Origin: a virus
Taxonomy: Duplodnaviria; Heunggongvirae; Uroviricota; Caudoviricetes
Length of the DNA stretch: 64,000 nucleotides
Strand: one strand, 5' to 3'
IMG/VR virus record: IMGVR_UViG_2740892427_000001
Part shown: one piece after another, positions 3,984 through 16,541 of the stretch
Layout: each line of letters opens with the position of its first letter
Position numbering within the stretch: position 1 is the first letter of the stretch
Program-made: the position numbers and the translations under genes
Notes under the pieces: model-generated
Databases searched by the model: none
Told to the model about the DNA's origin: nothing
The model's input: only the letters and a program-made list of their open reading frames with translations

Positions 3984-4086
3984 AATTGCACCATTAAGAA
4001 GTGATTTGTTTAATGGTGCAATTATTTCAAAAATGAAAAGGTACTAAATAGAAATAAACAGGCAATCCTTCAAATAAAGGCATTGG

Positions 4087-4985
4087 CTAATCATACTTGG
4101 AGGTATTTATCACCAGAATTTTGTTTGTATAAATCTTCTTAATATCCCATGTGACATTACCGGAATACCATTGACCGTTATATACTTGGTTTCCAGTTGC
4201 ACCTGTCATTGTTACATAGACAGGTCTGTCGTAATCGGTTCGTCTATAGTTATATACCCCAACCATAGCAGGCATTACCGCACATGGATACCCCATATCT
4301 ATTGTAAATTGAGGGTCAGAAATAGTGATAAGTTTCGCATCAAGGGGCATCATCTCACCGTGATACACCATTGCGCCTGCGCTGTTATACATGGCAATGC
4401 CATAGCCAGAATGTGGTAACACCATATCAGAAAAAGCATAAACTATTATTGTTCCGGGGCTACCATTTACCTGATGCAATCTGAGAGCATTGTATCCGTT
4501 ACTATGCTCATGAATAAACATCATGTTCGCCTTATTACTGCTTTTTATGAAGAAAAAGCATGATTTGTTTGATGGGATTGATGTTTGAAAAACAGAACCT
4601 TTAGATGCAGACATTGTCCCTTTATTAATCAGATTTTGCGGAGTAAATTCTGGACTCATCCACAAACTTCCATCTGATTGAGTAATTGACATCCCGAACA
4701 TAATTATCCCCAGTATGTGTATATGTAAGAACCAAGCCCCGTATATAAATTTGACCAACTAACCGTATTTCCATTAATAGTAACATTTGGAACAGGTAAA
4801 TTGATGTAGTTGTCGTTGTTAAGAGGCATTAATGACCACACGGCATGTAGTGATTTACCCGGTGGCGGATTAGAGTACGTCTTAGAGCCTGATGACGCCG
4901 TAAATCGATCAAGAAAAAAAATAGGTGTAAGGAAGCCAGTAACGTTAATTCCTTTATTGTTGTAAATCCCTGTACCGTATGCCAT
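4087..4985 (-). CDS. Asn/Gly/Tyr-rich hypothetical protein in AT-rich DNA, split into two overlapping frames (4704..4985 and 4087..4758) by an apparent frameshift
   Basis: two same-strand ORFs overlap at 4704-4758; adding one base in the C4 run 4737-4740 joins ...SNLYTG to AWFLHIHILGIIMFGM...; downstream ORF only has a TTG start. Confidence 0.35.
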
Positions 4986-5039
4986 TTTTCACCCTTGTTT
5001 TTATCAACACAATATGGCCGATCATGCGGCCATATCAGA

Positions 5040-5609
5040 TCAATTAGAGCTTTGAAAGACTTTGTGTGGTTGTGTTGCGAGGTTATGTCGATGGCTTAAC
5101 TCACGCATCATGTCTTCAAGGCGACTCTTTGTGTCGTCGAGTTGGTCGGCCATTGCTCCCAAAAGCTGACGAACGGCCATCGGATCATCGCTGTTTAGTG
5201 ATGGCATTTTATAACCCGCCTGAGAAGACATAAGATTGAACGCAGACATCAACATCGTTAGAGAGGATTTAAGCCCAGCAATTTCACGATCTTTGCTGGC
5301 AATAATCGCCTCACTCTTGTTAGTGTCATCAGTTCGTTGAGTCTCGCTCACCATATCCAAAGTCGCCTGCAACTTATCAGCGCGCTCTTTTTCAGCAAGA
5401 TAATGAACACCGAAATGATGTGCTAAAGCTACAACCTGAGTTGGCTCTTCAAAGGTGGACTCAAAATTAAGTGCTGTAACCACTCTCTCAAATATGGAAA
5501 CGTCTTCTATTCCTCGAAGAATGGCTAACATTTTGACCAGTTCATTAGCATCCATTTCTTCGAATAAGGCGTTTTGTTCATCAGCTATCGCTTTGCATTT
5601 CTTGCACAT
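5040..5609 (-). CDS. hypothetical protein (189 aa)
   Basis: ORF with AGGAAAAACAC-ATG initiation region and AAACAAGTTGTTT palindrome upstream. Confidence 0.6.
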   Translation of the reverse strand: MCKKCKAIADEQNALFEEMDANELVKMLAILRGIEDVSIFERVVTALNFESTFEEPTQVVALAHHFGVHYLAEKERADKLQATLDMVSETQRTDDTNKSEAIIASKDREIAGLKSSLTMLMSAFNLMSSQAGYKMPSLNSDDPMAVRQLLGAMADQLDDTKSRLEDMMRELSHRHNLATQPHKVFQSSN

Positions 5610-5906
5610 GTGTTTTTCCTAATGCTTAAACAAGTTGTTTTCTTATTGGCTTTATTGTGATGTGGCATAAAAGGGGAGCAAGCTAAACGTAAAGGTGCAA
5701 ACTCTCTATTTCGGTCAACGAAACACAAGGGCCATTTGGCCCTTGTCATTAACACGTTGCTTTACGGACTAGCGGATAAGCGAAGTAGATCGCCAAACCA
5801 ATGAGGACGCCATCAGAAATGACAGACATCATCTTTCCCGTAAAATCCACCAACACCGCCATCACCAGAAGAGCAATGACGATCACAAGCCGGAATCTCT
5901 CAAGCA

Positions 5907-6332
5907 TTAGAGATAAGCATCCAGTGACAACTGAAGCGCCTGGGCGATCTTTTTCAGTGCCTGCTCTTCTTGTTCACCAATGCCATCCTGATCGGCAATA
6001 TCAAGGCACAGACACAGAACATCGACCGCCTCTGGAGTACCCGCAATATCAGAAAGCTCACGAATAGCCTGTGCATTAGCAGAACGAGGGGACGCTTCGT
6101 AACGAGCACGGATATTGGCGCTCATTTGGGCAATTTCACCAGCAAACGGAGAAAACGCAGGCAGAGCTGCAATTGTCTTCTCAAGAATGGCAATTTCTTT
6201 TGCGTCACATGTGCCGTCGGCATAGGAGATCATGTACGCGCCCCACACGGTGGCCTCAACCGCATCACGGTTCTCCATTTTTTTGACTTCGATAACTGCT
6301 TTACGAGTTTTCTTTTTGAAGAAACCTAACAT
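5907..6332 (-). CDS. TerB-like protein (tellurite-resistance TerB domain family)
   Basis: duplicated ...ADGxxDxxE... pattern (YADGTCDAKEIAILEK; IADQDGIGEQEEQALKKIAQALQL) typical of TerB. Confidence 0.5.
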   Translation of the reverse strand: MLGFFKKKTRKAVIEVKKMENRDAVEATVWGAYMISYADGTCDAKEIAILEKTIAALPAFSPFAGEIAQMSANIRARYEASPRSANAQAIRELSDIAGTPEAVDVLCLCLDIADQDGIGEQEEQALKKIAQALQLSLDAYL

Positions 6333-6425
6333 GTGTTTTCCTTTTGTTATTTGTCAAAACAAGTTGTTTTATAGTTTCATAAATTGCTTACGCAAAGATG
6401 GTCAATGCATATGCACTAACAGCCG

Positions 6426-6614
6426 TCAGAAATAACCAAGTACCGAACCGACTGGAAAAACAAAAATCCCAACTACACGAGCCAAGGTCATGCCAGCCTG
6501 AAACTGGAGATCGCCAGAGCAAACAAGTTTTATAATGTTCGATACCCAACCGGCGGCCATGAGGGCAAGAATTGCCAGCCAAATTTTTCCAAAGTGATTT
6601 GAAAACCAGTTCAT
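6426..6614 (-). CDS. small hydrophobic membrane protein (62 aa)
   Basis: two predicted TM segments; alternative overlapping frame 6388..6618 looks less protein-like. Confidence 0.4.
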   Translation of the reverse strand: MNWFSNHFGKIWLAILALMAAGWVSNIIKLVCSGDLQFQAGMTLARVVGIFVFPVGSVLGYF

Positions 6615-6623
6615 ACAACCGCC

Positions 6624-7118
6624 TTAGTCACAGCATGATCCTGAGTAACCGGATGAACTTGAGGTATCGCATCCACCGTCATCCCATCCAGAGTGACAGG
6701 ACGCTCTACTGGAGTGGTGGTAATTGTCGTCGACGGAGGTGTGGTGATGGATGAACCCGGCATCAAAAGGCTCTGGCCGGCTGGAACGGCTACCGTCGCC
6801 AGTGAAACTATAATGAGAACGTAGGCCATTGGTTTCAGCCTCTTTCTTTGAAAATTTTCCATTCGAACTGTCCTTGTTGTTTTTCTCCTTCACTAAAGGC
6901 CGTGTACTTTTCGCTTCGCGTGAAGAACCAGAGGCAACAATCGCCCCCACGTTCGCAACAACTGACGCTTGATTATCTAAACGTTCATTCAGCAACCGAA
7001 CGGTAGTCTCTAGTTCATCAAGACGTGACATAACACGACCGCTAAACAATTCGGCCAAAATTTGACGTAAAGAACGAGGACGTTTAGTTGCAGAAGTGAA
7101 ATAGGTTTGACGTGCCAT
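6624..7118 (-). CDS. hypothetical protein; C-terminal half overlaps another frame (6611..6862) that encodes a signal-peptide-bearing Thr/Pro-rich product
   Basis: N-terminal ~80 aa look protein-like, C-terminal part is low complexity; the true gene structure here is unresolved. Confidence 0.3.
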   Translation of the reverse strand: MARQTYFTSATKRPRSLRQILAELFSGRVMSRLDELETTVRLLNERLDNQASVVANVGAIVASGSSREAKSTRPLVKEKNNKDSSNGKFSKKEAETNGLRSHYSFTGDGSRSSRPEPFDAGFIHHHTSVDDNYHHSSRASCHSGWDDGGCDTSSSSGYSGSCCD

Positions 7119-7147
7119 GTGGACTCCATCCAGTGTCAGAAAGAGTT

Positions 7148-7169
7148 GCGGCTGGCGATTGCCAGCCGC
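7148..7169. other. stem-loop GCGGCTGGCgattGCCAGCCGC
   Basis: 9-bp perfect stem upstream of gene 6624..7118. Confidence 0.45.
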
Positions 7170-7263
7170 CTTTCTCGTTCCATCCTGGAACTGTGTCTTA
7201 CCGACACATTGTCATCCTGACGCTGATAAGATACATGATTTAAAATGATAGGTAAACACTTAC

Positions 7264-7857
7264 TTACTGCTTGTTATAAACAAAACCAATATCTTTCTTG
7301 TGAGGCATATCTGCTGCTGAAAAAGCTGCGATCTTCGCGAGTCGATCACATATTTCATTTTCACGATGCCCGGCGTGACCTTTAACCCACTTCCAGCGAA
7401 CATTATGTCGACTTGCGGCCTCATCCAGACGTTTCCACAGATCAACATTCTTTACCGGTTTTTTATCAGAAGTCATCCATCCATTACGTTTCCACCATTT
7501 CATCCACTGTGTCATGCCGTTTTTCAGATACTGGCTATCAGAGTACAAAATAACGTTGCATGGATATTTCAAACGCTCCAGCCCGATAAGTGCGCCCATC
7601 ATCTCCATGCGGTTATTGGTGGTGCTATGAAAACCATCTGAGAACTCGCGTTCCTCACCACGATACTGGAGAACGATACCGTAACCGCCCGGGCCACCCG
7701 GATTTTTAAGGCAAGAGCCATCACTAAAGATTTTCACGGTTTTGAGCTGGGGATTGAACTCTACGACAGGCGTTGTGGGATTGGTGCGGGGAGAATTTTT
7801 GTTTTTGGCTTTTTTGCGAGTTTTTGCTTGCGATCGGGCTGGTGTCTTCGTCGTCAT
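7264..7857 (-). CDS. rnhA: ribonuclease HI with Lys-rich N-terminal extension
   Basis: [16 protein letters not shown]...MEMMGAL...YSDSQYL...[18 protein letters not shown] match RNase H catalytic core; start moved to ATG 7857 with AGGAG 7 nt upstream. Confidence 0.85.
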
Positions 7858-8439
7858 ATAAACTCCTGAATCAAGCGCCGCGCCGATTTTTTCCTCGCGC
7901 GTGCGCACACGCGTGCGTGTTAATAATTATTAAAATAAACAAATTACTTCCCAGAACAGGTTTTTATAAACCTGAACTGAACGAACGAAGTGAGTGAAGT
8001 TCACCTCGAACGAAGTGAGAGGTTGTCTTTTCAGGTAATACTCTCCCAGGGAGGTGAGTATAAAATTCCTCACCAACCTGGTCGTTTCATAACCTGAAAA
8101 GCTATGGTCTAAGTCTACTGCCAGCTTAGACTTGGGAAGTTATGGATGACAGCACCCCAGAACCGAGATCTTCCCACACTTTATGAAGGGGAGTACTGGA
8201 TTCAACCTCTCGAAACACCCCAGACTCGACAATCATAAAGTGACCCTTGTCTCTGCTCACTTTGGTTCCCCCTTCCCCGACACCTATACGGCACCGGTTC
8301 TACGCTGGTAGTGAGCTTTTTTAAACCTGACGCCAGTGACGCTTACCCCCACCCATCAGGTCGAGCCTCCAGTCTACGACTGGAAACTATCATATCTTAG
8401 CACTTACAATTCACTTTATGAATAGTTTGTACTTATCTA

Positions 8440-8694
8440 TCATTGTGATTGATTATTTTCTCGACCATGTAGTTGAACATTCAAGGCAAACACCTCATTG
8501 ATCAACTCACCTAAAAGCTGTTCAACAAGTTCGCGATGCTCTCCAAGATGCAAGCACTTAATTGCCCACTCGTACAAGTTGAAAGCCTGCTCACGATCTT
8601 TCATCATTTCACGAGCCTGGGCCAGAAAATCGCTCTCTACGAGCGCAACGACATTAGTCGGGTATGACATGTTGGTTTCCTTAAAGTGGTTCAT
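8440..8694 (-). CDS. hypothetical protein (84 aa)
   Basis: ORF. Confidence 0.45.
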   Translation of the reverse strand: MNHFKETNMSYPTNVVALVESDFLAQAREMMKDREQAFNLYEWAIKCLHLGEHRELVEQLLGELINEVFALNVQLHGRENNQSQ

Positions 8695-8773
8695 AAAATC
8701 GATTTTAAAGCGTCTGGGAAGGGGTTCTAGTGGATTCTGTAGTGATGTTCAGGTCTGGAGTCTCTGATACAAA

Positions 8774-8834
8774 ACAGCCTGCTTCCGTATATTAATAATT
8801 AATATGTAGTTATTTATATATACAGAAGCAGGCT
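8774..8834 (-). terminator. long stem-loop AGCCTGCTTCCGTATAT-n23-ATATACAGAAGCAGGCT just downstream of the Dam gene
   Basis: 17-bp arms, AT-rich loop, U-rich tract follows on the minus strand. Confidence 0.5.
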
Positions 8835-8855
8835 AATTACAGACGCCAGAACAAA

Positions 8856-9449
8856 CTAAGCAGCCTTCTTTGATGGTCTTTTTTTCCTGATCACATTCGC
8901 AGGATCATACCCTCCCAGACTTTTCATGACGTCCAAAGGGATCTTGCTTATAGAGTGCCCAGCGTCCTGACAGAATCCTCGAAAAACAACGAGCATACTG
9001 CCACCGGGGTTGATGTTTACTTCTACCTGACCCAAATTGACGTCAGGCTCGACAAACGCTACGCGGCCACCAGACAGAATAATCGTCTCATTCGCATACT
9101 CTGTTGCACGCTCATACCACTTTGTATCGAGGGATTGAGGAATTAGCATCACTGTTGTAACTCCGCGAGCCTGCTCACGTATAGCAGCATCAATCCAGGG
9201 GGAGATTTTGGAGTAGGGTGGATTGAGGAAGGCAATTGTACCTGGCTGTCCCCATTCAGATTTCAAAGCATCACGCTCAATGCCTATGAAATTAGGCAGC
9301 TTTGCGTTGTCCTTGTTGCAGGCAACGTCAACATCAAATGTCACTCCAAGATAACGTTGAATGGCAGAAAACAGCCAATCAGGTGTTCTCCAGAGGTCAC
9401 GAAGAGAGTTGTCGCGCTTTCGCTGTTTGATTTTTTCGGCTGCAATCAT
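8856..9449 (-). CDS. phage-type DNA N6-adenine methyltransferase (Dam-like)
   Basis: LNPPYSKISPWIDAA motif and ~200-aa size typical of small phage Dam enzymes. Confidence 0.75.
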   Translation of the reverse strand: MIAAEKIKQRKRDNSLRDLWRTPDWLFSAIQRYLGVTFDVDVACNKDNAKLPNFIGIERDALKSEWGQPGTIAFLNPPYSKISPWIDAAIREQARGVTTVMLIPQSLDTKWYERATEYANETIILSGGRVAFVEPDVNLGQVEVNINPGGSMLVVFRGFCQDAGHSISKIPLDVMKSLGGYDPANVIRKKRPSKKAA

Positions 9450-9525
9450 CTTCTTTCTCGATAGGTAAGTGATTACCTATTTTTGCATTTGATTTTATGT
9501 CTGGCAATCAAATAAAACGCGCCAG

Positions 9526-9553
9526 AAATGCAAACGAGAAGCTCTCTGGCGCG
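9526..9553. terminator. bidirectional terminator CGCGCCAGA-loop-TCTGGCGCG flanked by A/T runs
   Basis: 9-bp GC stem, TTTTT on both strands. Confidence 0.6.
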
Positions 9554-9632
9554 TTTTTGTGGTGCTGGGTATGTGATTGGCTTACCCAGCACTATAAAGC
9601 TCTCTATGGGCTTTATTTTCAGTAGGGGAACG

Positions 9633-10442
9633 TCATCCAATAGTGTACTCCGCGACAAACTTCTTAACGATCGGTGATTCTTCGTTCAATGTTAGATTTC
9701 CACCGTCTCTAACGGCAATTCCTGTCGCTGGAAATACAGCCATCATTTGCCCAGCCTGAGTTGACGCAGTGTTAAGCGGATACGGTTTTTCTGGATTGCT
9801 CATTAAAGCAATCTTAATACTATTACTTGTAGCCTTCTTTTCTGTGAGAAGGTGTCTCATGGAAATTACCGTGTAAACACTAATATCTGGACCTCCGCTA
9901 AACCAATTAAGAAGGTTTAATATCTTATCCTTTGCTTTGACAGGCGCGTTATCGTAAGCGTCTAAGAAAATATCTTTTTCTAAGCCCGCTTTATTGAAAA
10001 ACGAATCATCTTTATCACTTAAAGTAAAACGAGGACCTCTTGCAGTACGAGCTTTTTTATTTGTATTGCTATCATTTGACTGTTGAACTTTTAATTCATC
10101 ATTAACCTCAACACACTCTTCAACCTCAATAAATCCCAATTGTTCTGGCTCGTTTTCGGCAGATTCAACACTTTCAGCGTTAATTACGTTTATAGGCTCA
10201 TGCGCTAACTCCAACTCATTTAAAGCAGAGCTGAAATCACCTGCTTTTTCTTCATTGAACAGTTCTTCGGCAACATCATCAGAACTCATGGCTACGCCAG
10301 CATCGAGGCCGAGCAGCAGATCGTCAATATCATCAGTATTTTCAACCTGTGCGGCTTTCTTTACTGGTTCATCAAGTGATTGCAACATGGCTGTCAGCTC
10401 GTCCAGATCATCATTTGTCATTACATTTTCAACCGAACTCAT
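9633..10442 (-). CDS. highly acidic hypothetical protein (269 aa)
   Basis: N-terminal ~130 aa strongly Asp/Glu-rich (DDLDEL..., NEPEQLGFIEVEECVEVNDE). Confidence 0.55.
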   Translation of the reverse strand: MSSVENVMTNDDLDELTAMLQSLDEPVKKAAQVENTDDIDDLLLGLDAGVAMSSDDVAEELFNEEKAGDFSSALNELELAHEPINVINAESVESAENEPEQLGFIEVEECVEVNDELKVQQSNDSNTNKKARTARGPRFTLSDKDDSFFNKAGLEKDIFLDAYDNAPVKAKDKILNLLNWFSGGPDISVYTVISMRHLLTEKKATSNSIKIALMSNPEKPYPLNTASTQAGQMMAVFPATGIAVRDGGNLTLNEESPIVKKFVAEYTIG

Positions 10443-10600
10443 GTAAGTCTCCTTCTGTTTGGTTACATTTGCGTTTCGATGGCTACATTTTGACTAAACC
10501 TATCAGGCGGAAAAGTATTAAATACAGGCAGGAAATGATTGAAAGGCGACTGTTCTTTAAAAGAAAGCCTACTTTAAACTTTTTAAAGTAGGCTTTTGTT

Positions 10601-11155
10601 TTACACAATTTCAGAGGGTAATTTAAAAAATCCGTACTTATTACGTGCCTTAAAGAAGCATTGCATCATTAAGTTTGTGTCATATAAGGCACTATGTGCT
10701 TTGGCATGATCGTATATAAAGCCAAGAGAGAAGGCCAACTCTTCAAGGCGGGGACGTTTACCGTCTTCTGTGGCCCACAGGGAAAATATAGTGTCAATCA
10801 ATGGGATGTCTGGAAGCGAAAAACCGTAACTTTTCAGCTCATGCCTAATAAACGGAATATCGAACGCTTCGCCGTTGTGGGCTATCCAAATATCGGAAGA
10901 AGAGAGATACGAAGCGACAGATGAAGCGTGATCGGCTAGTAACGGCTCGGCGGCTAAATCTTCAAGACTGATGCCGTGTACCGCTTGCGCTTTCGGATCG
11001 ATACTGCGACGCGGGTTGAACCGCATTACAAAACTATCAACCATTGTCTGTGTCTCCAGTTCATAGCGGGTAATTGCGATTTCAATAATTTTATGACCAG
11101 CAAGGAAATCCAGTCCCGTAGACTCGATATCGATGCCTGCAACAATCGTTGTCAT
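10601..11155 (-). CDS. DnaQ-like 3'-5' exonuclease (DEDDh, Pol III epsilon-like)
   Basis: Exo I GIDIESTG, Exo II HNGEAFDIPF, Exo III HSALYDT. Confidence 0.8.
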   Translation of the reverse strand: MTTIVAGIDIESTGLDFLAGHKIIEIAITRYELETQTMVDSFVMRFNPRRSIDPKAQAVHGISLEDLAAEPLLADHASSVASYLSSSDIWIAHNGEAFDIPFIRHELKSYGFSLPDIPLIDTIFSLWATEDGKRPRLEELAFSLGFIYDHAKAHSALYDTNLMMQCFFKARNKYGFFKLPSEIV

Positions 11156-11164
11156 CAGAACTCC

Positions 11165-11584
11165 TTACAACTTCTTAGCGCCCTTAAGTAGTGCGCTACG
11201 TACAAATTGAGCCGCTTTTTTCAAAGTTTCTTCACTGGTTTCACAGACAATCGGATCTTTCCACTTACCTGACACAGTGTTGAGAATATTGATTTGGTTG
11301 CTATCCAGACAAACAGAGATATAAAGCACCGTGCCACCAGCCAGCATCAAATGCATAGGAAACAGAGGCTTTTTACTGCCTTCACTGAACTGAGACATGG
11401 CGATGTTAATGGCTTCACCCACTTGTGTACCAACAAGCCCCTGCGCAGTTTCGAATATGGCACGAATAGCCAGACGAGCCTCTCGATCGCTCATAAGCGA
11501 CCGGGAATGTTCGTCCGCTACACGAATCAAAGCCTCTGTTGTTTTCCGATCCAGTTCATCTTCAAGCAACATTTCACTAAACAT
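11165..11584 (-). CDS. hypothetical protein (139 aa)
   Basis: ORF. Confidence 0.5.
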   Translation of the reverse strand: MFSEMLLEDELDRKTTEALIRVADEHSRSLMSDREARLAIRAIFETAQGLVGTQVGEAINIAMSQFSEGSKKPLFPMHLMLAGGTVLYISVCLDSNQINILNTVSGKWKDPIVCETSEETLKKAAQFVRSALLKGAKKL

Positions 11585-11645
11585 TTTTTATCCTTAACCC
11601 ATTTTGAGAGTTTTATTGTCGCAATGTCGAAGAGGCGAACAATTT

Positions 11646-12290
11646 CTAATGAACGGTCACTCGGCCACAGAACCGGTTTTCTATCTTTTCTACAGCGTTA
11701 TCTAGCATTCTCATCACTGATCTGGCTCTTGCTTCAACTGTGCGATACCGGTTGGAAACGACGAAGGTTTGCAGATCTCCCCTTTGCGGATGCAGGTGAA
11801 TTTTTGTCAGTTCCCCGCACATCAACGCATCAATACGAGCGACATACAGACGGTCTAATGATGCTCGTTGTGACCGCAAGTAATCTCGCTCTGAGAGAGC
11901 GACCCCCGGGCGTAGGCCAGCAATGGCGTTAAAGTTTGAAATAGCAGTTTTGTGGCAAAACTTTTCGATATCGAGGGCTAACTCAATACACCGATCTTCA
12001 TTTGTATGGCCGACCAAATCCAACGTGTAGGCCATAACATCAGCAGGTGTGCGATCGATAACAAAGCCTTCAACACCACGCGTAAGTAGCTCTATATGCT
12101 TTGCTATTTCCATTTGAATCTGAAGCCGCTCATATAGAGGCATAGAATCACCTACTCGAACACCGAGGCGGCTCATCAAACTTCCGACACCAGCATCCAC
12201 GTAAGGGATTCCGTAATGTTTGTCGATATATTTAGCCAGGGTTGTTTTCCCACTGCCCTGAGCACCAGTGATCCCAATCCGGTAATCCAT
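11646..12290 (-). CDS. P-loop nucleotide kinase (putative dNMP kinase)
   Basis: Walker A GITGAQGSGKTT at N-terminus; sits in the nucleotide-metabolism cluster. Confidence 0.55.
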   Translation of the reverse strand: MDYRIGITGAQGSGKTTLAKYIDKHYGIPYVDAGVGSLMSRLGVRVGDSMPLYERLQIQMEIAKHIELLTRGVEGFVIDRTPADVMAYTLDLVGHTNEDRCIELALDIEKFCHKTAISNFNAIAGLRPGVALSERDYLRSQRASLDRLYVARIDALMCGELTKIHLHPQRGDLQTFVVSNRYRTVEARARSVMRMLDNAVEKIENRFCGRVTVH

Positions 12291-12766
12291 TACGACCTTC
12301 TGTATACGATCTGCGAAAAGCCAGGCTCTTCCTCGCTGGCTCGTTGGGTATAAGCTGTTTCAACAGGCACAAAGCCTAAGTTACGCATCATGCTTGCCGG
12401 GAAGAAGGCATCGGCGTTTGGTACATCAACGCCGATGTGGGAGAGCCAAATCTCTTCAACATGCGGCATGAATAGCGAGTAAATTTGTTCCCCGCCAATC
12501 ACCCACACAGGCTCTGGTAATCGCAACACATCATCCACACCAGCAGGGTAGAATCCATTTGGTACAAAGCCATGAGAGCGCGTCAAAACGAGGTTATGAC
12601 GCTCTGGAAGAGGGCGTTTGAGACTTTCCATCGTTTTACGCCCCATAACGACAGTGGCGTTTTTGGTGAGTCTCTTAAATAGCTTCAGATCGGTAGAACA
12701 ACGCCAGGGCAGTTCGTTCGCTATGCCGATCTCATAGTTACGGCCAACAGCAGCGATCATCTTCAT
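12290..12766 (-). CDS. folA: dihydrofolate reductase
   Basis: MIAAVGRNYEIG...LPW...VVMGRKT...RPLPERHNLVLTRS...WVIGGEQIY match DHFR throughout. Confidence 0.85.
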   Translation of the reverse strand: MKMIAAVGRNYEIGIANELPWRCSTDLKLFKRLTKNATVVMGRKTMESLKRPLPERHNLVLTRSHGFVPNGFYPAGVDDVLRLPEPVWVIGGEQIYSLFMPHVEEIWLSHIGVDVPNADAFFPASMMRNLGFVPVETAYTQRASEEEPGFSQIVYRRS

Positions 12767-13176
12767 TTGCTCACCTCATAGATGACCGGTCGATGGTGAG
12801 AGTCGGCTAAAGCGGCACGGAGTCGAGGATCGTGCACCAGCGCAGCGATAAGCAGATCGCCTTTATGCTCCGCTAATGTGCGCTTAATATGCTTCTCATA
12901 ACTGGTGCCATTCGGTACGAGATGAAGCCAGTCATAATCAACGCCAAAATCTTTCAGCCATCGTTTAGTTGGCGCTTCAAGAGTTTCAGAGCGGCTACTG
13001 ATAAGCACCACTTCAGCCCCTGAGCGAGCAAAACCACGCAACATACGGCTGGTGGGGAAAATGAGTTCATCACCGGCAATGAGCTGGCCTGCATCCGCGT
13101 CAGATACTGATTTACGATGGCTGGCATTTGCCAGCACACCTTCAATTTCGCATAAGACATACATACCTCTTGCCAT
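12763..13176 (-). CDS. hypothetical protein
   Basis: start moved to ATG 13176 (ATGGCAAGAGG) to remove a 47-nt overlap with thyA; no confident motif. Confidence 0.4.
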   Translation of the reverse strand: MARGMYVLCEIEGVLANASHRKSVSDADAGQLIAGDELIFPTSRMLRGFARSGAEVVLISSRSETLEAPTKRWLKDFGVDYDWLHLVPNGTSYEKHIKRTLAEHKGDLLIAALVHDPRLRAALADSHHRPVIYEVSK

Positions 13177-13177
13177 A

Positions 13178-14281
13178 TCACACCGCCACTGGAACCTTGA
13201 TCCACGGTAGAGGGTCATAGCCAAGAATTAAAACCTCGTCCCATTTGAAATCATCCAACTCTGACCATTCATGAGGGAAAATAACGACCGGATCTGAATG
13301 CTCTGGAGCCTGTCGTTTCATTAGCTCACACACACCTTCCATGTGGTTGTTGTACAAATGCACGTCAAAGCCAAAATGCACAAATGCACCGGCCATGTGA
13401 CCCGTAATCTTCGCGAGAAAATGAGTGAGAATGCCATAGCCAGCAATATTGAATGGCATACCAACAAAAGTGTCTACGCTACGCTGTACGAGGCAGGAGT
13501 TGAGGATGCGTTTGGGGATTCCAAGTTCATCCAGTTCAGCTTCAGTAACACTGCCGTCCATCTCCAGATCGTATAGCATCTTGGTGTAGATAGACTCGTA
13601 ACCGAGGCGACTGTGTTGAAGACCAATGTCAGTTGCCATCGTTAAACGGGTTTCAAAATCCAGCTCACGACTCCACAAAGAGAAGACAAAGTGGCAAGGT
13701 GGCAGTTTCATATCCTCAAGCTCGCCTACGTTCCATGCGTTAAGCATGATGCGACGATCGGTAGGGTTCGTGCGCAGTGTATCGACAATACGCTGTAGCT
13801 GATCGATTTCACGGGACAGCACTACGCGATCTTCACTGATACCCAGGTATCCCTCGACTTTGTACCCGCGTTCACGGAAAGTAGCGATCTTGCTCAGATA
13901 TTCACTATGGCTCACGATGCGGGTATCTTCCCATCGACGCCACTGCTTACCGTAAACCGGCCCCAAATCGCCATTCTCATCGGCCCATGCATCCCAAATC
14001 TTAACGCCGTTATCCTTGAGAAATTGGATGTTGCCCGTGCCTTTCAGATACCACTCAAGTTCGACAAGTAGTGGCTTAAGATTTACCGCCTTTCCAGAAA
14101 TAAGCGGCACAGTCCCACCAGTAAGCATGTAGTAAGAGGGAACGTAGCAGGTGCTTAAAGTGCCAGTGCCTGTGCGATCATCAGCCTGCACGCCGCTTTT
14201 AAGCACCGTCTCAATAACTTTTGCATACGATGCGTTTGTTACCTGACCGTTCGTATGCTCTCGATTCAAAAGGAGTGACAC
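13178..14281 (-). CDS. thyA: thymidylate synthase (ThyA family, extended 367-aa form)
   Basis: DRTGTGT, DLGPVYGKQWR, catalytic LPPCH, PFNIAGYGILTH, GYDP; roughly 100 aa longer than E. coli ThyA. Confidence 0.85.
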   Translation of the reverse strand: MSLLLNREHTNGQVTNASYAKVIETVLKSGVQADDRTGTGTLSTCYVPSYYMLTGGTVPLISGKAVNLKPLLVELEWYLKGTGNIQFLKDNGVKIWDAWADENGDLGPVYGKQWRRWEDTRIVSHSEYLSKIATFRERGYKVEGYLGISEDRVVLSREIDQLQRIVDTLRTNPTDRRIMLNAWNVGELEDMKLPPCHFVFSLWSRELDFETRLTMATDIGLQHSRLGYESIYTKMLYDLEMDGSVTEAELDELGIPKRILNSCLVQRSVDTFVGMPFNIAGYGILTHFLAKITGHMAGAFVHFGFDVHLYNNHMEGVCELMKRQAPEHSDPVVIFPHEWSELDDFKWDEVLILGYDPLPWIKVPVAV

Positions 14282-14365
14282 AAAAACCTCACAAAGATAA
14301 GTAATTACTTATTCATCGTGTGAGTTTACATTCATTGAGAGAACAAGACCAGACAGATAAAAAAA

Positions 14366-14384
14366 TGGTGGCCATAGGCCACCA
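14366..14384. terminator. stem-loop TGGTGGCCataGGCCACCA after an A7 run
   Basis: 8-bp stem. Confidence 0.5.
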
Positions 14385-14451
14385 AAACGAATAGTCATTC
14401 CAGAGTTTTATTACGCATGTTAAATATACACAGATAGATAACTACCTACAA

Positions 14452-15321
14452 TTATTTTTTGATCATTCCGTACATTGCTGAGGCTTTAGCTTGCTCAACA
14501 AAGGAGGATAAATCGACATCACTATAGGTTGGAGACTTCAGAATCTTTCCATCGGAAATTCGAAAACCGATCATCTTATCGGTGCCATCAGCATGGCGGA
14601 ATCCCAGATCTGAAGAGTCGTATTTGCAGTTGGCCACAGCCTGGCGACGTTCCTCAACATCAGCAGGCCATAATTTTGTCATGTTAGACCGATGAATTTC
14701 GCCAACCAGCTCGACGACATTGATACCGAGGAAATCAGCCAGTCGATAAGTCATCATGCACGCCACATAGATTTTGTTCATTACACGGCGCAGTTCCTGA
14801 ATCAGCTCAGAATCCTTAACAGTCTTCTTCTCAAGTTTATCTGCCAGCTCTTCGAGCATACATGACGCCTCACGAGCTTCCTGAAATGGCATTGCCATAT
14901 CATCGAAAACAGTGTTACCGGGCACAAAAATTGTCTGCATAAAGCGATCAATGCTCTGTTCCTGCGTGTAATAGGTCATGCCGGTAGAAATACCACCTTT
15001 GATGGAGACCATCGTACCAACACCAACGTATAAAAAGTCGGCCATTGCATCCAGCAGTTGCTCAATATCCCCATTCATTGCGGCTGGAATACCTTCCACT
15101 ACAGCTTCTTCATGAATCAGGCTTGCACGGAGACGAAGCAGCTCTGGTGTCGGCATAACGCGTCTCGGATGCTGGAAGAGTTCATGAAACTGATCGACCA
15201 TCTTGTAAATACTTTCAGTGGCTACACCATGGCCTTCATGCAACTCATATGGTTCTGGCTTAAATCCAATGAGTCGATCGGTGGCAAGTTTCAGGTGGTC
15301 AGTCAGTTTGGTAAAGTTCAT
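14452..15321 (-). CDS. putative all-alpha NTP pyrophosphohydrolase (MazG/HisE-like)
   Basis: start moved from 15519 to ATG 15321 (RBS AAGGAA) to clear nrdB; EEAVVEG...DIEQLLDAMADFLYV acidic helix pattern; weak assignment. Confidence 0.35.
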   Translation of the reverse strand: MNFTKLTDHLKLATDRLIGFKPEPYELHEGHGVATESIYKMVDQFHELFQHPRRVMPTPELLRLRASLIHEEAVVEGIPAAMNGDIEQLLDAMADFLYVGVGTMVSIKGGISTGMTYYTQEQSIDRFMQTIFVPGNTVFDDMAMPFQEAREASCMLEELADKLEKKTVKDSELIQELRRVMNKIYVACMMTYRLADFLGINVVELVGEIHRSNMTKLWPADVEERRQAVANCKYDSSDLGFRHADGTDKMIGFRISDGKILKSPTYSDVDLSSFVEQAKASAMYGMIKK

Positions 15322-15398
15322 GCTAGTTTTGTTCCTTCTTAATTCTTGTGATCCATTGTGGCCCAGCGTTGCCAGGCCACATAATGCTTTGTATCGGT

Positions 15399-16541
15399 TT
15401 ACAGGTCTGCAAACTGGCTTAGAGAAGCCTTGTCCACGGTAGAATCGATCTGACCTACCAGATATGTGCTTTGCTCTGCCTCTTGTGGTGCAATTTGCAG
15501 TGTGTCGGTTAACAACCACTTGTTCATCCAGACCAGCGGATCAGTGGTAACTTCTGGAAATAAAGCCTTCAGGCCAAGACGATTCATAGCCAGATTGGTT
15601 CGGTATTTTACATAGGTCTTCAGAATATCCGCGTTTAAACCAATCATCGAACCGTCTTTGAAGAGATAGTCTGCCCAGTTCATTTCTTGTTCGGCGACTG
15701 ATTTCATGGTGTCGTAAATGACGTTTTCTTCATCAGCAGCAATCTCTTTCCACAATAAACCTTCGCGACCGGTACGCATGAAGCGGATCATGCGTTCAGT
15801 TCCTTCGCAATGCAGAGCTTCATCACGGGCAATAAAGCGCATAATTTTGGTGTTACCCTCAAGCAACTTCCGTTCGCCAAAGGCAAACGTACATGCAAAA
15901 CTTACATAGAAACGGATCGCCTCAAGCGCATTAATGGACACTAACGTGCGGAAAAGCTGACGGTGCAAAGGGTATGGCTCCCAGCCATATTCATTTACGT
16001 ACAGACGTTCAAACTCTTTCTCACCTAACGACTGGCGCTCGCAGGTCATCCCATAAAGCCTGTCATATTCAGCAGAGATACTGATCGCTCGGTTGATGAT
16101 TTCTTCATCCGTAACAATACCGTCAAAAACAATGCTCGGATCGTCCACCATGCCACGAATAATGTGGGTGTAGCTGCGGCTATGGATAGTCTCAGAGAAA
16201 GACCATGTTTCAACCCACGTTTCCAGTTCAGGAATAGAGATAAGCGGCAGCAGCGTTGCATTTGGGCTACGTCCCTGAACTGAATCGAGCAACGTTTGAT
16301 AACGGAGATTACTCAGGAAAATGTGGCGTTCGTGGTCCCGCAGCTTCGTATTGAAGTCGATGCGATCGCTCGAAATATCAACTTCTTCCGGCCGCCAGAA
16401 GAAAGACAATTGACGTTCAATCAACTTTTCAAAATCACGGTATTTTTGTTGATCGTAACGAGCCACGTTGACAGATTGTCCGAGGAACATAGGCTCTTTG
16501 GTTGCATCATTAGCACCCAAACGGAACGTTGAATATGACAT
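15399..16541 (-). CDS. nrdB: ribonucleotide reductase class Ia beta subunit
   Basis: 380 aa, close to enterobacterial NrdB in length and motifs ([13 protein letters not shown]-terminal tail). Confidence 0.9.

Follow-up and report, generated by a model that had tools for sequence, protein, structure and literature searches.

The minus-strand region at positions 4087-4985 of the window, the 64,000-nt stretch of tailed-phage DNA analyzed here (IMG/VR record IMGVR_UViG_2740892427_000001), comprises two intact, tightly coupled genes, ORF1 and ORF2, and not one interrupted gene. Their products probably form, as its two subunits, a receptor-binding protein (RBP) at the tail tip of a phage-plasmid, with ORF2 as the likely receptor-binding body. 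A tail-tip receptor-binding module is indicated by the protein family, by the fold (with weak to moderate Foldseek support), by where the homologues lie in other phages, and by co-variation with the C-terminus of the central tail fibre protein J. This module has already been recognized bioinformatically (2021-2026), and partly by proteomics, so the pair is of a known kind in an unusual genomic position. The apparently new points, i.e. the distant position, the alternative locus and allele, the correspondence of ORF1 to an N-terminal domain and the co-variation with J, are useful but incremental.

The window is part of an SSU5-like Escherichia coli phage-plasmid. A 1,051-nt query around 4087-4985 shows 99.4% identity to Escherichia phage Cyrano, which is pLF82, the phage-plasmid carried by E. 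coli LF82, and is described as an SSU5-like siphovirus phage-plasmid (PMC9928086), and coordinate mapping places the window at 22.9-86.9 kb of Cyrano in reversed orientation. The same query matched about 112 E. coli/Shigella plasmids at 95-99.8% identity (about 120 records in total). Almost all of these plasmids are non-mobilizable and, among the matches listed, most are 105-116 kb in size.

The initial annotation considered this region AT-rich, and its G+C content is indeed 38.7%, compared with 45.9% for the window; among 899-nt sliding windows this value belongs to the lowest 0.7% and lies 2.6 SD under the mean. Codon usage follows the same trend, with GC3 values of 0.36-0.37 for ORF1/ORF2 and 0.41-0.59 for the neighbouring genes. 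The richness in Asn, Gly, Tyr, Ser and Thr noted earlier was likewise found in both computed compositions (ORF1: N 12.9%, G 10.8%, Y 8.6%, S 9.7% and T 9.7%; ORF2 is similar). Positions 4087-4985 correspond exactly to the span of the minus-strand coding sequence, within which and around which the following features were distinguished:

4048..5062 (approximate, about 1.0 kb), no strand assigned: cassette; the DNA outside these limits aligns with plasmid pECOH89 and a Klebsiella plasmid, both of which are pair-free at this locus
4087..4701, minus strand: ORF2, 204 aa, ATG at 4701, stop codon at 4089-4087; putative large, all-beta subunit
4699..4712, minus strand: gene junction CTGGGGATAATTATG, containing a GGGGA Shine-Dalgarno sequence, TAA, 2 nt and the ATG of ORF2
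4704..4985, minus strand: ORF1, 93 aa, ATG at 4985, TAA at 4706-4704; putative small subunit
4746..4752, minus strand: heptamer A AAT TTA in the ORF1 frame; candidate -1 frameshift site, rejected
5003..5044, minus strand: stem-loop that covers the end of the upstream 189-aa gene (stop codon at 5040-5042) and the adjoining spacer; -17.5 kcal/mol, z -3.1
5040-5609: 189-aa gene
5749-5907: 52-aa ORF, whose counterpart in related plasmids is annotated as DUF3927
5907-6332: TerB/TciA-like gene

A break of the reading frame had been proposed at the C4 run at 4737-4740, but none exists there. The ORF1 frame reads through the run and ends with ...YTGLGSYIYTYWG before its stop codon, and this C-terminus is kept in the aligned ORF1 homologues (n=13), with the exception of one aberrant metagenomic sequence. 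The GGGGA Shine-Dalgarno sequence of ORF2 comes from the Trp-Gly codons that are the last ones of ORF1, and nearly all ORF2 homologues possess an M-[FYH]-G-M-S-I-T N-terminus at the position of the ORF2 ATG. Judged from its sequence, the junction appears to have a translational-coupling layout. The two-ORF arrangement is kept in seven loci (40-100% protein identity), with a stop-to-start distance of 2-8 nt, while in a divergent pair of plasmid pECOH89 the ORF1 stop and the ORF2 start overlap (TAATG). The split was found in every close relative (40-99% identity), among which no product of about 300 aa was found, and the dN/dS values for both ORFs (0.06-0.11; 0.08 for ORF1) indicate purifying selection. 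Because the split is conserved, ORF2 has its own start and purifying selection is strong, the region is best described as two coupled genes, with neither a broken gene nor a frameshift fusion. In a promoter and terminator scan, ORF1 was not directly preceded by a sigma-70-like site, nor was ORF2 followed by a canonical terminator, and the pair is probably read through from upstream.

A few ORF1 variants deposited from public assemblies (P0020 and P0028) contain local frameshifts, either internal or running past the stop codon, which are probably assembly errors. They illustrate how easily this AT-rich locus is miscalled.

The joined product of about 300 aa envisaged in the initial annotation is represented by two genes here, but proteins of this form do occur among distant relatives. 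An exhaustive profile search yielded 111 relatives of ORF2, most of them 200-230 aa long. Nine of the 111 are single chains of 309-325 aa, in which the ORF2-like part begins near residue 95-115 and the N-terminal ~100 aa share homology with ORF1 (hhalign probability 94.9%, E 4.8e-8). The concatenated ORF1+ORF2 sequence aligns with these proteins end to end and collinearly. On the strength of these alignments, the ~300-aa joined form corresponds to a real ancestral or alternative single-chain form; in the clade of the window, the split lies exactly at the domain boundary and is conserved.

The N-termini of ORF1 (4985-4900) and ORF2 (4701-4620) share a similar motif of about 25 residues, M-x-[YF]-G-x-x-[IV]...G...[TS]-P, and MAFFT placed the N-termini of the ORF2 family onto that of ORF1. 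A duplication within the ancestral single-chain protein is a possible origin of this motif.

In the PHROGs database, ORF1 belongs to phrog_557 ("outer membrane protein"; E 6e-29) and ORF2 to phrog_425 ("membrane associated protein"; E 2e-69), both over the full length. Neither protein gave matches in Pfam or NCBIfam, and none to Lom or Cor. The database names are not borne out by the sequences: neither protein has a signal peptide, a lipobox, a transmembrane segment or a hydrophobic N-terminus, and no beta-barrel signature was recognized, so that a membrane or outer-membrane location was rejected. The internal hydrophobic segment mentioned in the initial annotation is present; it is weak and not transmembrane-like, with a maximal Kyte-Doolittle 19-residue mean of 1.1, below the level of a transmembrane helix.

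Neither a profile of ORF2 nor one fused relative matched the sequence of any PDB chain. A Foldseek comparison with a solved RBP, that of Rtp44/Oekolampad (PDB 9rpt), which binds LptD (PMC12685063), gave an E value of 0.067 and a TM score of 0.31, a weak to moderate structural similarity. The Rtp44/Oekolampad RBP is a single chain paired with a small lipoprotein exclusion factor, whereas the candidate RBP of the window is split; sequence similarity between the two was not detectable, and Oekolampad and Rtp were absent among the tblastn organism names listed or tallied. When ORF1 and ORF2 were joined and modelled by AF2 together with 17 fused relatives, the result was too poor to use (pLDDT 58, pTM 0.40), and a heterodimer was not supported by the modelling.

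Split homologues were identified in 291 phage records (tblastn with ORF2), and the pair, or its fused form, lies directly beside the gene for the central tail fibre or J in JenP1, Bas04, TL-2011c, DU_PP_V and the contigs L015 and L017, which is not the case in the element of the window. In the Nonagvirus JenP1 the pair is placed between J and another tail gene, and in the T1-like phage FritzSarasin/Bas04 it is convergent with a J-like gene and adjacent to a Cor-like exclusion gene. The pair follows the tail-fibre genes in the Stx phage TL-2011c; in Stx podophages it is found after tail-fibre/needle genes and before lom. In one T5-like phage of Pectobacterium, the gene behind pb4 is homologous to ORF2. 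Two more fused relatives (315 and 321 aa; L015 and L017) start at the stop codon of gpJ within lambda-like tail modules of the order tape measure, M, L, K, I, J and fused gene. The locus occupied by these homologues is the "bona fide RBP locus" that small siphophages have downstream of gpJ; it has been reported to match terminal-receptor specificity (Maffei et al. 2021, PMC8594841), and was confirmed in a 2026 preprint (10.64898/2026.04.02.716166); RBP families in the preprint are defined by >30% identity.

The locus of FritzSarasin/Bas04 and JK16, phages using BtuB as receptor, contains a homologous pair of 92 and 204 aa (49% and 40% identity to ORF1 and ORF2, respectively), with the same stop-start junction and a J protein with a homologous C-terminal region of about 190 aa. 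It differs from the window in that the pair adjoins J together with the Cor-like gene, while the window pair is separated from J by about 60 kb and no immediate neighbour is annotated as an exclusion gene. RB-TnSeq data for Bas04 list sdaC and dcrB besides btuB. Upstream of its pair, Bas04 encodes the 89-aa product of bas04_0025 (L010 4451-4720), which resembles the Cor proteins of superinfection exclusion (phrog_1119, E 1e-7).

Matusiak et al. (2025, PMC12309495) modelled the same pair as capping the central spike at its "knife-like" C-terminal tip, the model covering the FhuA-using Dhillonvirus JLBYU60, phi24B and a Pseudomonas phage. The pair proteins were predicted in that study to have low membrane affinity, with no signal peptide, lipobox or transmembrane segment (Table 1 therein). 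The 204-aa gp54 was found in the virion proteome of phi24B, and extra density was observed at the needle tip (cryo-EM preprint 10.64898/2026.04.10.717836); by analogy with this homologue, the products of the window pair may also be virion components. The gp55/gp54 pair of phi24B (Traversvirus) and the JLBYU60 pair carry the same database labels and have the same size (204 aa) as the window pair, and the Stx-phage homologues share 61% identity with ORF2 and accompany a central-fibre protein ending with ...VYD.N..L.VRIGRL. They are parts of podophage or virulent-siphophage tail modules using BamA or FhuA, whereas the window copy resides in a plasmid-prophage outside the tail module. Since phages bearing homologues use BtuB (Bas04, JK16), FhuA (JLBYU60) or BamA (phi24B), receptor specificity is not transferable to the window pair (40% identity to Bas04), and assignment of a receptor by homology was ruled out.

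The last ~190 aa of Cyrano J are homologous to the ends of the J proteins of JenP1 and Bas04 (38% and 32% identity, respectively; E ~1e-33). Elsewhere JenP1 J is barely similar to Cyrano J, and Bas04 J also aligns over the N-terminal ~970 residues with 29% identity. Cyrano J thus represents the short "knife-like" tip type with a C-terminus homologous to that of JenP1/Bas04 J. In most family-bearing contexts examined, including the Stx needle and T5-like pb4, the central fibre terminates with ...VYD..N...V.IGRL, and in the two fused contexts J ends with the related motif ...SYD..NRPAAVMGQRL.

Plasmid pECOH89 encodes a J protein 98% identical to that of Cyrano and is devoid of the window cassette. 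It contains a divergent pair (84 and 202 aa, with 34% and 26% identity to ORF1 and ORF2, respectively), located between a tail-fibre gene and a holin gene:

L018 7894-8756 (NC_023916.1 37893-38755): divergent pair of pECOH89, the one with the TAATG overlap

No second pair of the pECOH89 type was found in the window or in Cyrano. A tblastn search of all plasmids with ORF2 revealed 264 places in 253 records, approximately one pair per element (about 122 of the window type and 131 divergent); up to about 11 plasmid records have more than one copy, so "one per genome" is a tendency and not a rule. In Klebsiella SSU5-like plasmids and Yersinia pestis pMT1, the match to the C-terminus of Cyrano J stops 32 residues before the end, and almost no Klebsiella plasmid carries the pair (tblastn). 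In the Klebsiella plasmid examined, which is cassette-free at the locus, J ends in a different domain of about 165 aa and not in the 32-residue tip. Co-variation of the pair with the J terminus, sampled in three comparisons among SSU5-like plasmids, is expected of a pair that attaches to the short J tip, providing the receptor binding that other J proteins carry in cis. The J-like tail protein of a Klebsiella SSU5-like plasmid (L020 1-6041; NZ_CP107315.1 7100-19237) has 4,045 aa, with a domain of about 165 aa at its end where pair-carrying phages have the 32-residue tip.

We infer from these data that the pair assembles on J and binds a receptor in the element of the window. According to this model, a single transcript would give two separate polypeptides by translational coupling. 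ORF1, the N-terminal domain of an ancestrally single-chain protein of about 315 aa, would act as a tail-proximal adaptor, and ORF2 would form the beta-rich distal binding body of that ancestral chain. Together they would cap the short conserved C-terminal tip of the J trimer (the central tail fibre), and the capped tip would recognize a terminal outer-membrane receptor, triggering DNA ejection. In the plasmid lineage of the window, the cassette has landed about 60 kb from the tail operon.

Searches of the literature retrieved no description of a pair distant from the tail operon in phage-plasmids, of an alternative-locus and alternative-allele pattern with an unchanged J, of ORF1 as the N-terminal domain of single-chain forms, or of co-variation with the J terminus. 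Clinical E. coli often harbour phage-plasmids of the SSU5 group, some of which bring resistance genes with them, and their infection range depends on RBPs. The probable RBP identity therefore matters for a pair that public records label "hypothetical", "outer membrane" or "membrane associated". If the pair is an RBP, then an RBP may be encoded at a distance from the tail genes and at alternative loci, and be exchanged with virulent phages; its recognition would improve the prediction of host range and receptors from genomes. The pair is also a target for deletion and swap experiments, and annotators are warned against calling it a frameshifted pseudogene. The split and fused forms, together with the co-variation of the J terminus, provide a natural system for the docking of detachable RBPs on central fibres.

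One point against the RBP interpretation is the position of the pair. In Cyrano coordinates J occupies 17.7-22.4 kb and the pair 81.9-82.8 kb, and the surroundings of the latter consist of DNA-metabolism and accessory genes, which is atypical for a structural gene. The initial annotation placed the region between a two-domain methyltransferase gene and a TerB-like gene; a TerB/TciA-like gene does lie nearby, but the 189-aa gene and the 52-aa ORF intervene. The location outside the tail operon, among methyltransferase, TciA/B-like and Ead/Ea22-like genes, would be explained if the pair had been co-opted for an accessory role other than that of a virion component, such as a secreted or released RBP decoy, receptor masking (superinfection exclusion) or tail-assembly chaperoning. 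The database names "moron" and "membrane associated" agree with such a role, and a structural or chaperone-like option was raised for the homologous pair before the cap model was favoured (PMC12309495).

We nevertheless consider co-option unlikely. The sequence features expected of envelope proteins are missing both here and in the published homologues, the phi24B homologue is present in virions, the distribution of the cassette is complementary to that of the pECOH89 tail-module pair, and the cassette co-varies with the J tip. Moreover, the Cyrano genes with above-background expression in the LF82 lysogen (PMC9928086) do not include CYRAN_88/89, which argues against a role in lysogenic conversion or exclusion. 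Envelope morons and exclusion proteins (Lom, Cor, Llp and Rtp45) are distinguished by a membrane-embedded fold, by expression in the lysogen and by either a signal peptide or a lipobox, and the window pair does not display these traits. The earlier suggestion of an anti-host segment is not supported for ORF1/ORF2, whose family, fold, context elsewhere and co-variation with the J C-terminus indicate a tail-tip module.

The proposal of a horizontally acquired accessory gene is supported. The module is a self-contained, AT-rich cassette of about 1 kb that moves among virulent siphophages, Stx podophages, phage-plasmids and small integrative islands. At the locus of the window the pair is missing in pECOH89 and in one Klebsiella relative, in both of which the flanks could be aligned, and coverage patterns suggest the same absence in other E. 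coli and Klebsiella relatives. Where the window has this stretch of about 1.0 kb (roughly 4048-5062), pECOH89 has a spacer of only 140 nt that contains a GC-rich terminator. The stem-loop at 5003..5044 lies inside the cassette-specific left flank, where it replaces the GC-rich terminator hairpin of the cassette-free plasmids. At the nucleotide level the window pair is 78-86% identical to its counterparts in phage PhiR41_1 and in three virulent Nonagvirus phages, JenP1, JenP2 and BRET; for these three the value is 78-79%, and the match takes up about three-quarters of the 1,051-nt query, in its central part. The pair occurs in siphophages, podophages, phage-plasmids and small integrative islands, and its G+C content is lower than that of the rest of the locus in almost every context, as in these three phages:

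PhiR41_1: pair 0.37, rest of the locus 0.46
TL-2011c: pair 0.42, rest of the locus 0.52
JenP1: pair 0.38, rest of the locus 0.415

The identity to JenP1, JenP2 and BRET and the atypical G+C content would also fit a hitch-hiking cassette, recently received from a Nonagvirus-like phage and unused in this element, in which J or the long tail fibre would recognize the receptor; the phage-plasmid does encode, in addition, a 1,341-aa P1 S-like tail fibre. This explanation seems quite improbable to us, as about 120 E. coli/Shigella SSU5-like plasmids carry the pair intact (95-100% identity), purifying selection on it is strong, its J is devoid of a C-terminal binding domain of the type present in the pair-free Klebsiella relatives, and sister plasmids without the cassette contain a substitute pair.

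The location of the cassette outside the late tail operon and its fit to a J-tip motif common to many coliphages led us to one further, frankly speculative and doubtful, idea. The cassette could be a trans-acting host-range plug-in with its own expression schedule, capping the tails of the phage-plasmid as well as those of co-resident prophages or satellites with a compatible tip, and thereby retargeting the particles.

Least credible is a single protein of about 300 aa produced by -1 ribosomal frameshifting at 4752-4746, or a frameshifted pseudogene. The heptamer A AAT TTA is a canonical X XXY YYZ site in the ORF1 frame, located where the ORF2 frame is already open (from TTG 4758 in the window), and fused homologues exist. 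The heptamer is nevertheless present in only two of the seven loci (here and in PhiR41_1) and is missing in JenP1, and in TL-2011c a stop codon closes the ORF2 frame upstream of the ORF2 ATG. The frame offset from ORF1 to ORF2 is 2 in five of the seven loci and 0, behind TGA, in the other two (L004 and L006), hence the loci have no frame relation in common; every ORF2 starts from an ATG of its own, with a Shine-Dalgarno sequence and a conserved N-terminus, the ORF1 C-terminus downstream of the heptamer is conserved, and close relatives yielded no fused-size product. Programmed frameshifting was rejected on these grounds, and a pseudogene was ruled out by the presence of the split in all relatives down to 40% identity and by dN/dS values far below 1. 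Readthrough of a stop codon is possible only in L004 and L006, where ORF2 is in frame behind TGA, and does not apply to the window. As a lesser, speculative variant, low-level -1 slippage at the heptamer might add a fused isoform in the lineage of the window. The two ORFs resemble the lambda G/GT tail assembly chaperones in having two overlapping frames in a -1 relation in a tail-related context, but the downstream ORF of the window pair has its own start, neither the frame relation nor the slippery site is conserved, and there is no homology.

Several further observations concern the flanks of the cassette. A perfect 16-bp inverted repeat is present at 3982-3997/4010-4025, and its minus-strand 3′ arm enters the ATG (3983) of the DUF4942 methyltransferase gene. 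The predicted RNA fold has an energy of -20.6 kcal/mol (z -6.1). The repeat also occurs in pECOH89, where one G:C pair has become A:T by a compensatory change; a role in translational or operator control of the methyltransferase is possible. In pHH107-1 (L019 2754-3612), a type I restriction HsdR gene is found beside the pair, in place of the DUF4942 methyltransferase gene of the window. The cassette flank is itself a variable defence or modification spot.

The metagenomic contig L017, with its fused RBP gene after J, also contains colicin/microcin-family, UmuDC-like and ParA/ParB-like genes (10,000-16,400) and appears to be another phage-plasmid. Three E. coli islands of about 9-12 kb (L005-L007, about 4,600-13,300) encode an integrase and, in two of the three, an AlpA-like protein; one is located between eutB and eutA. 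They carry homologues of the pair (94 and 211 aa; 8001-8924 in L006), then a 76-aa ORF and a gene for a 732-aa tape-measure protein (phrog_1538, E 8e-101). These islands look like satellites bringing their own RBP and tape measure and, with the pair near their own tape-measure gene, they may use the same trans-capping trick as that considered above for the phage-plasmid.
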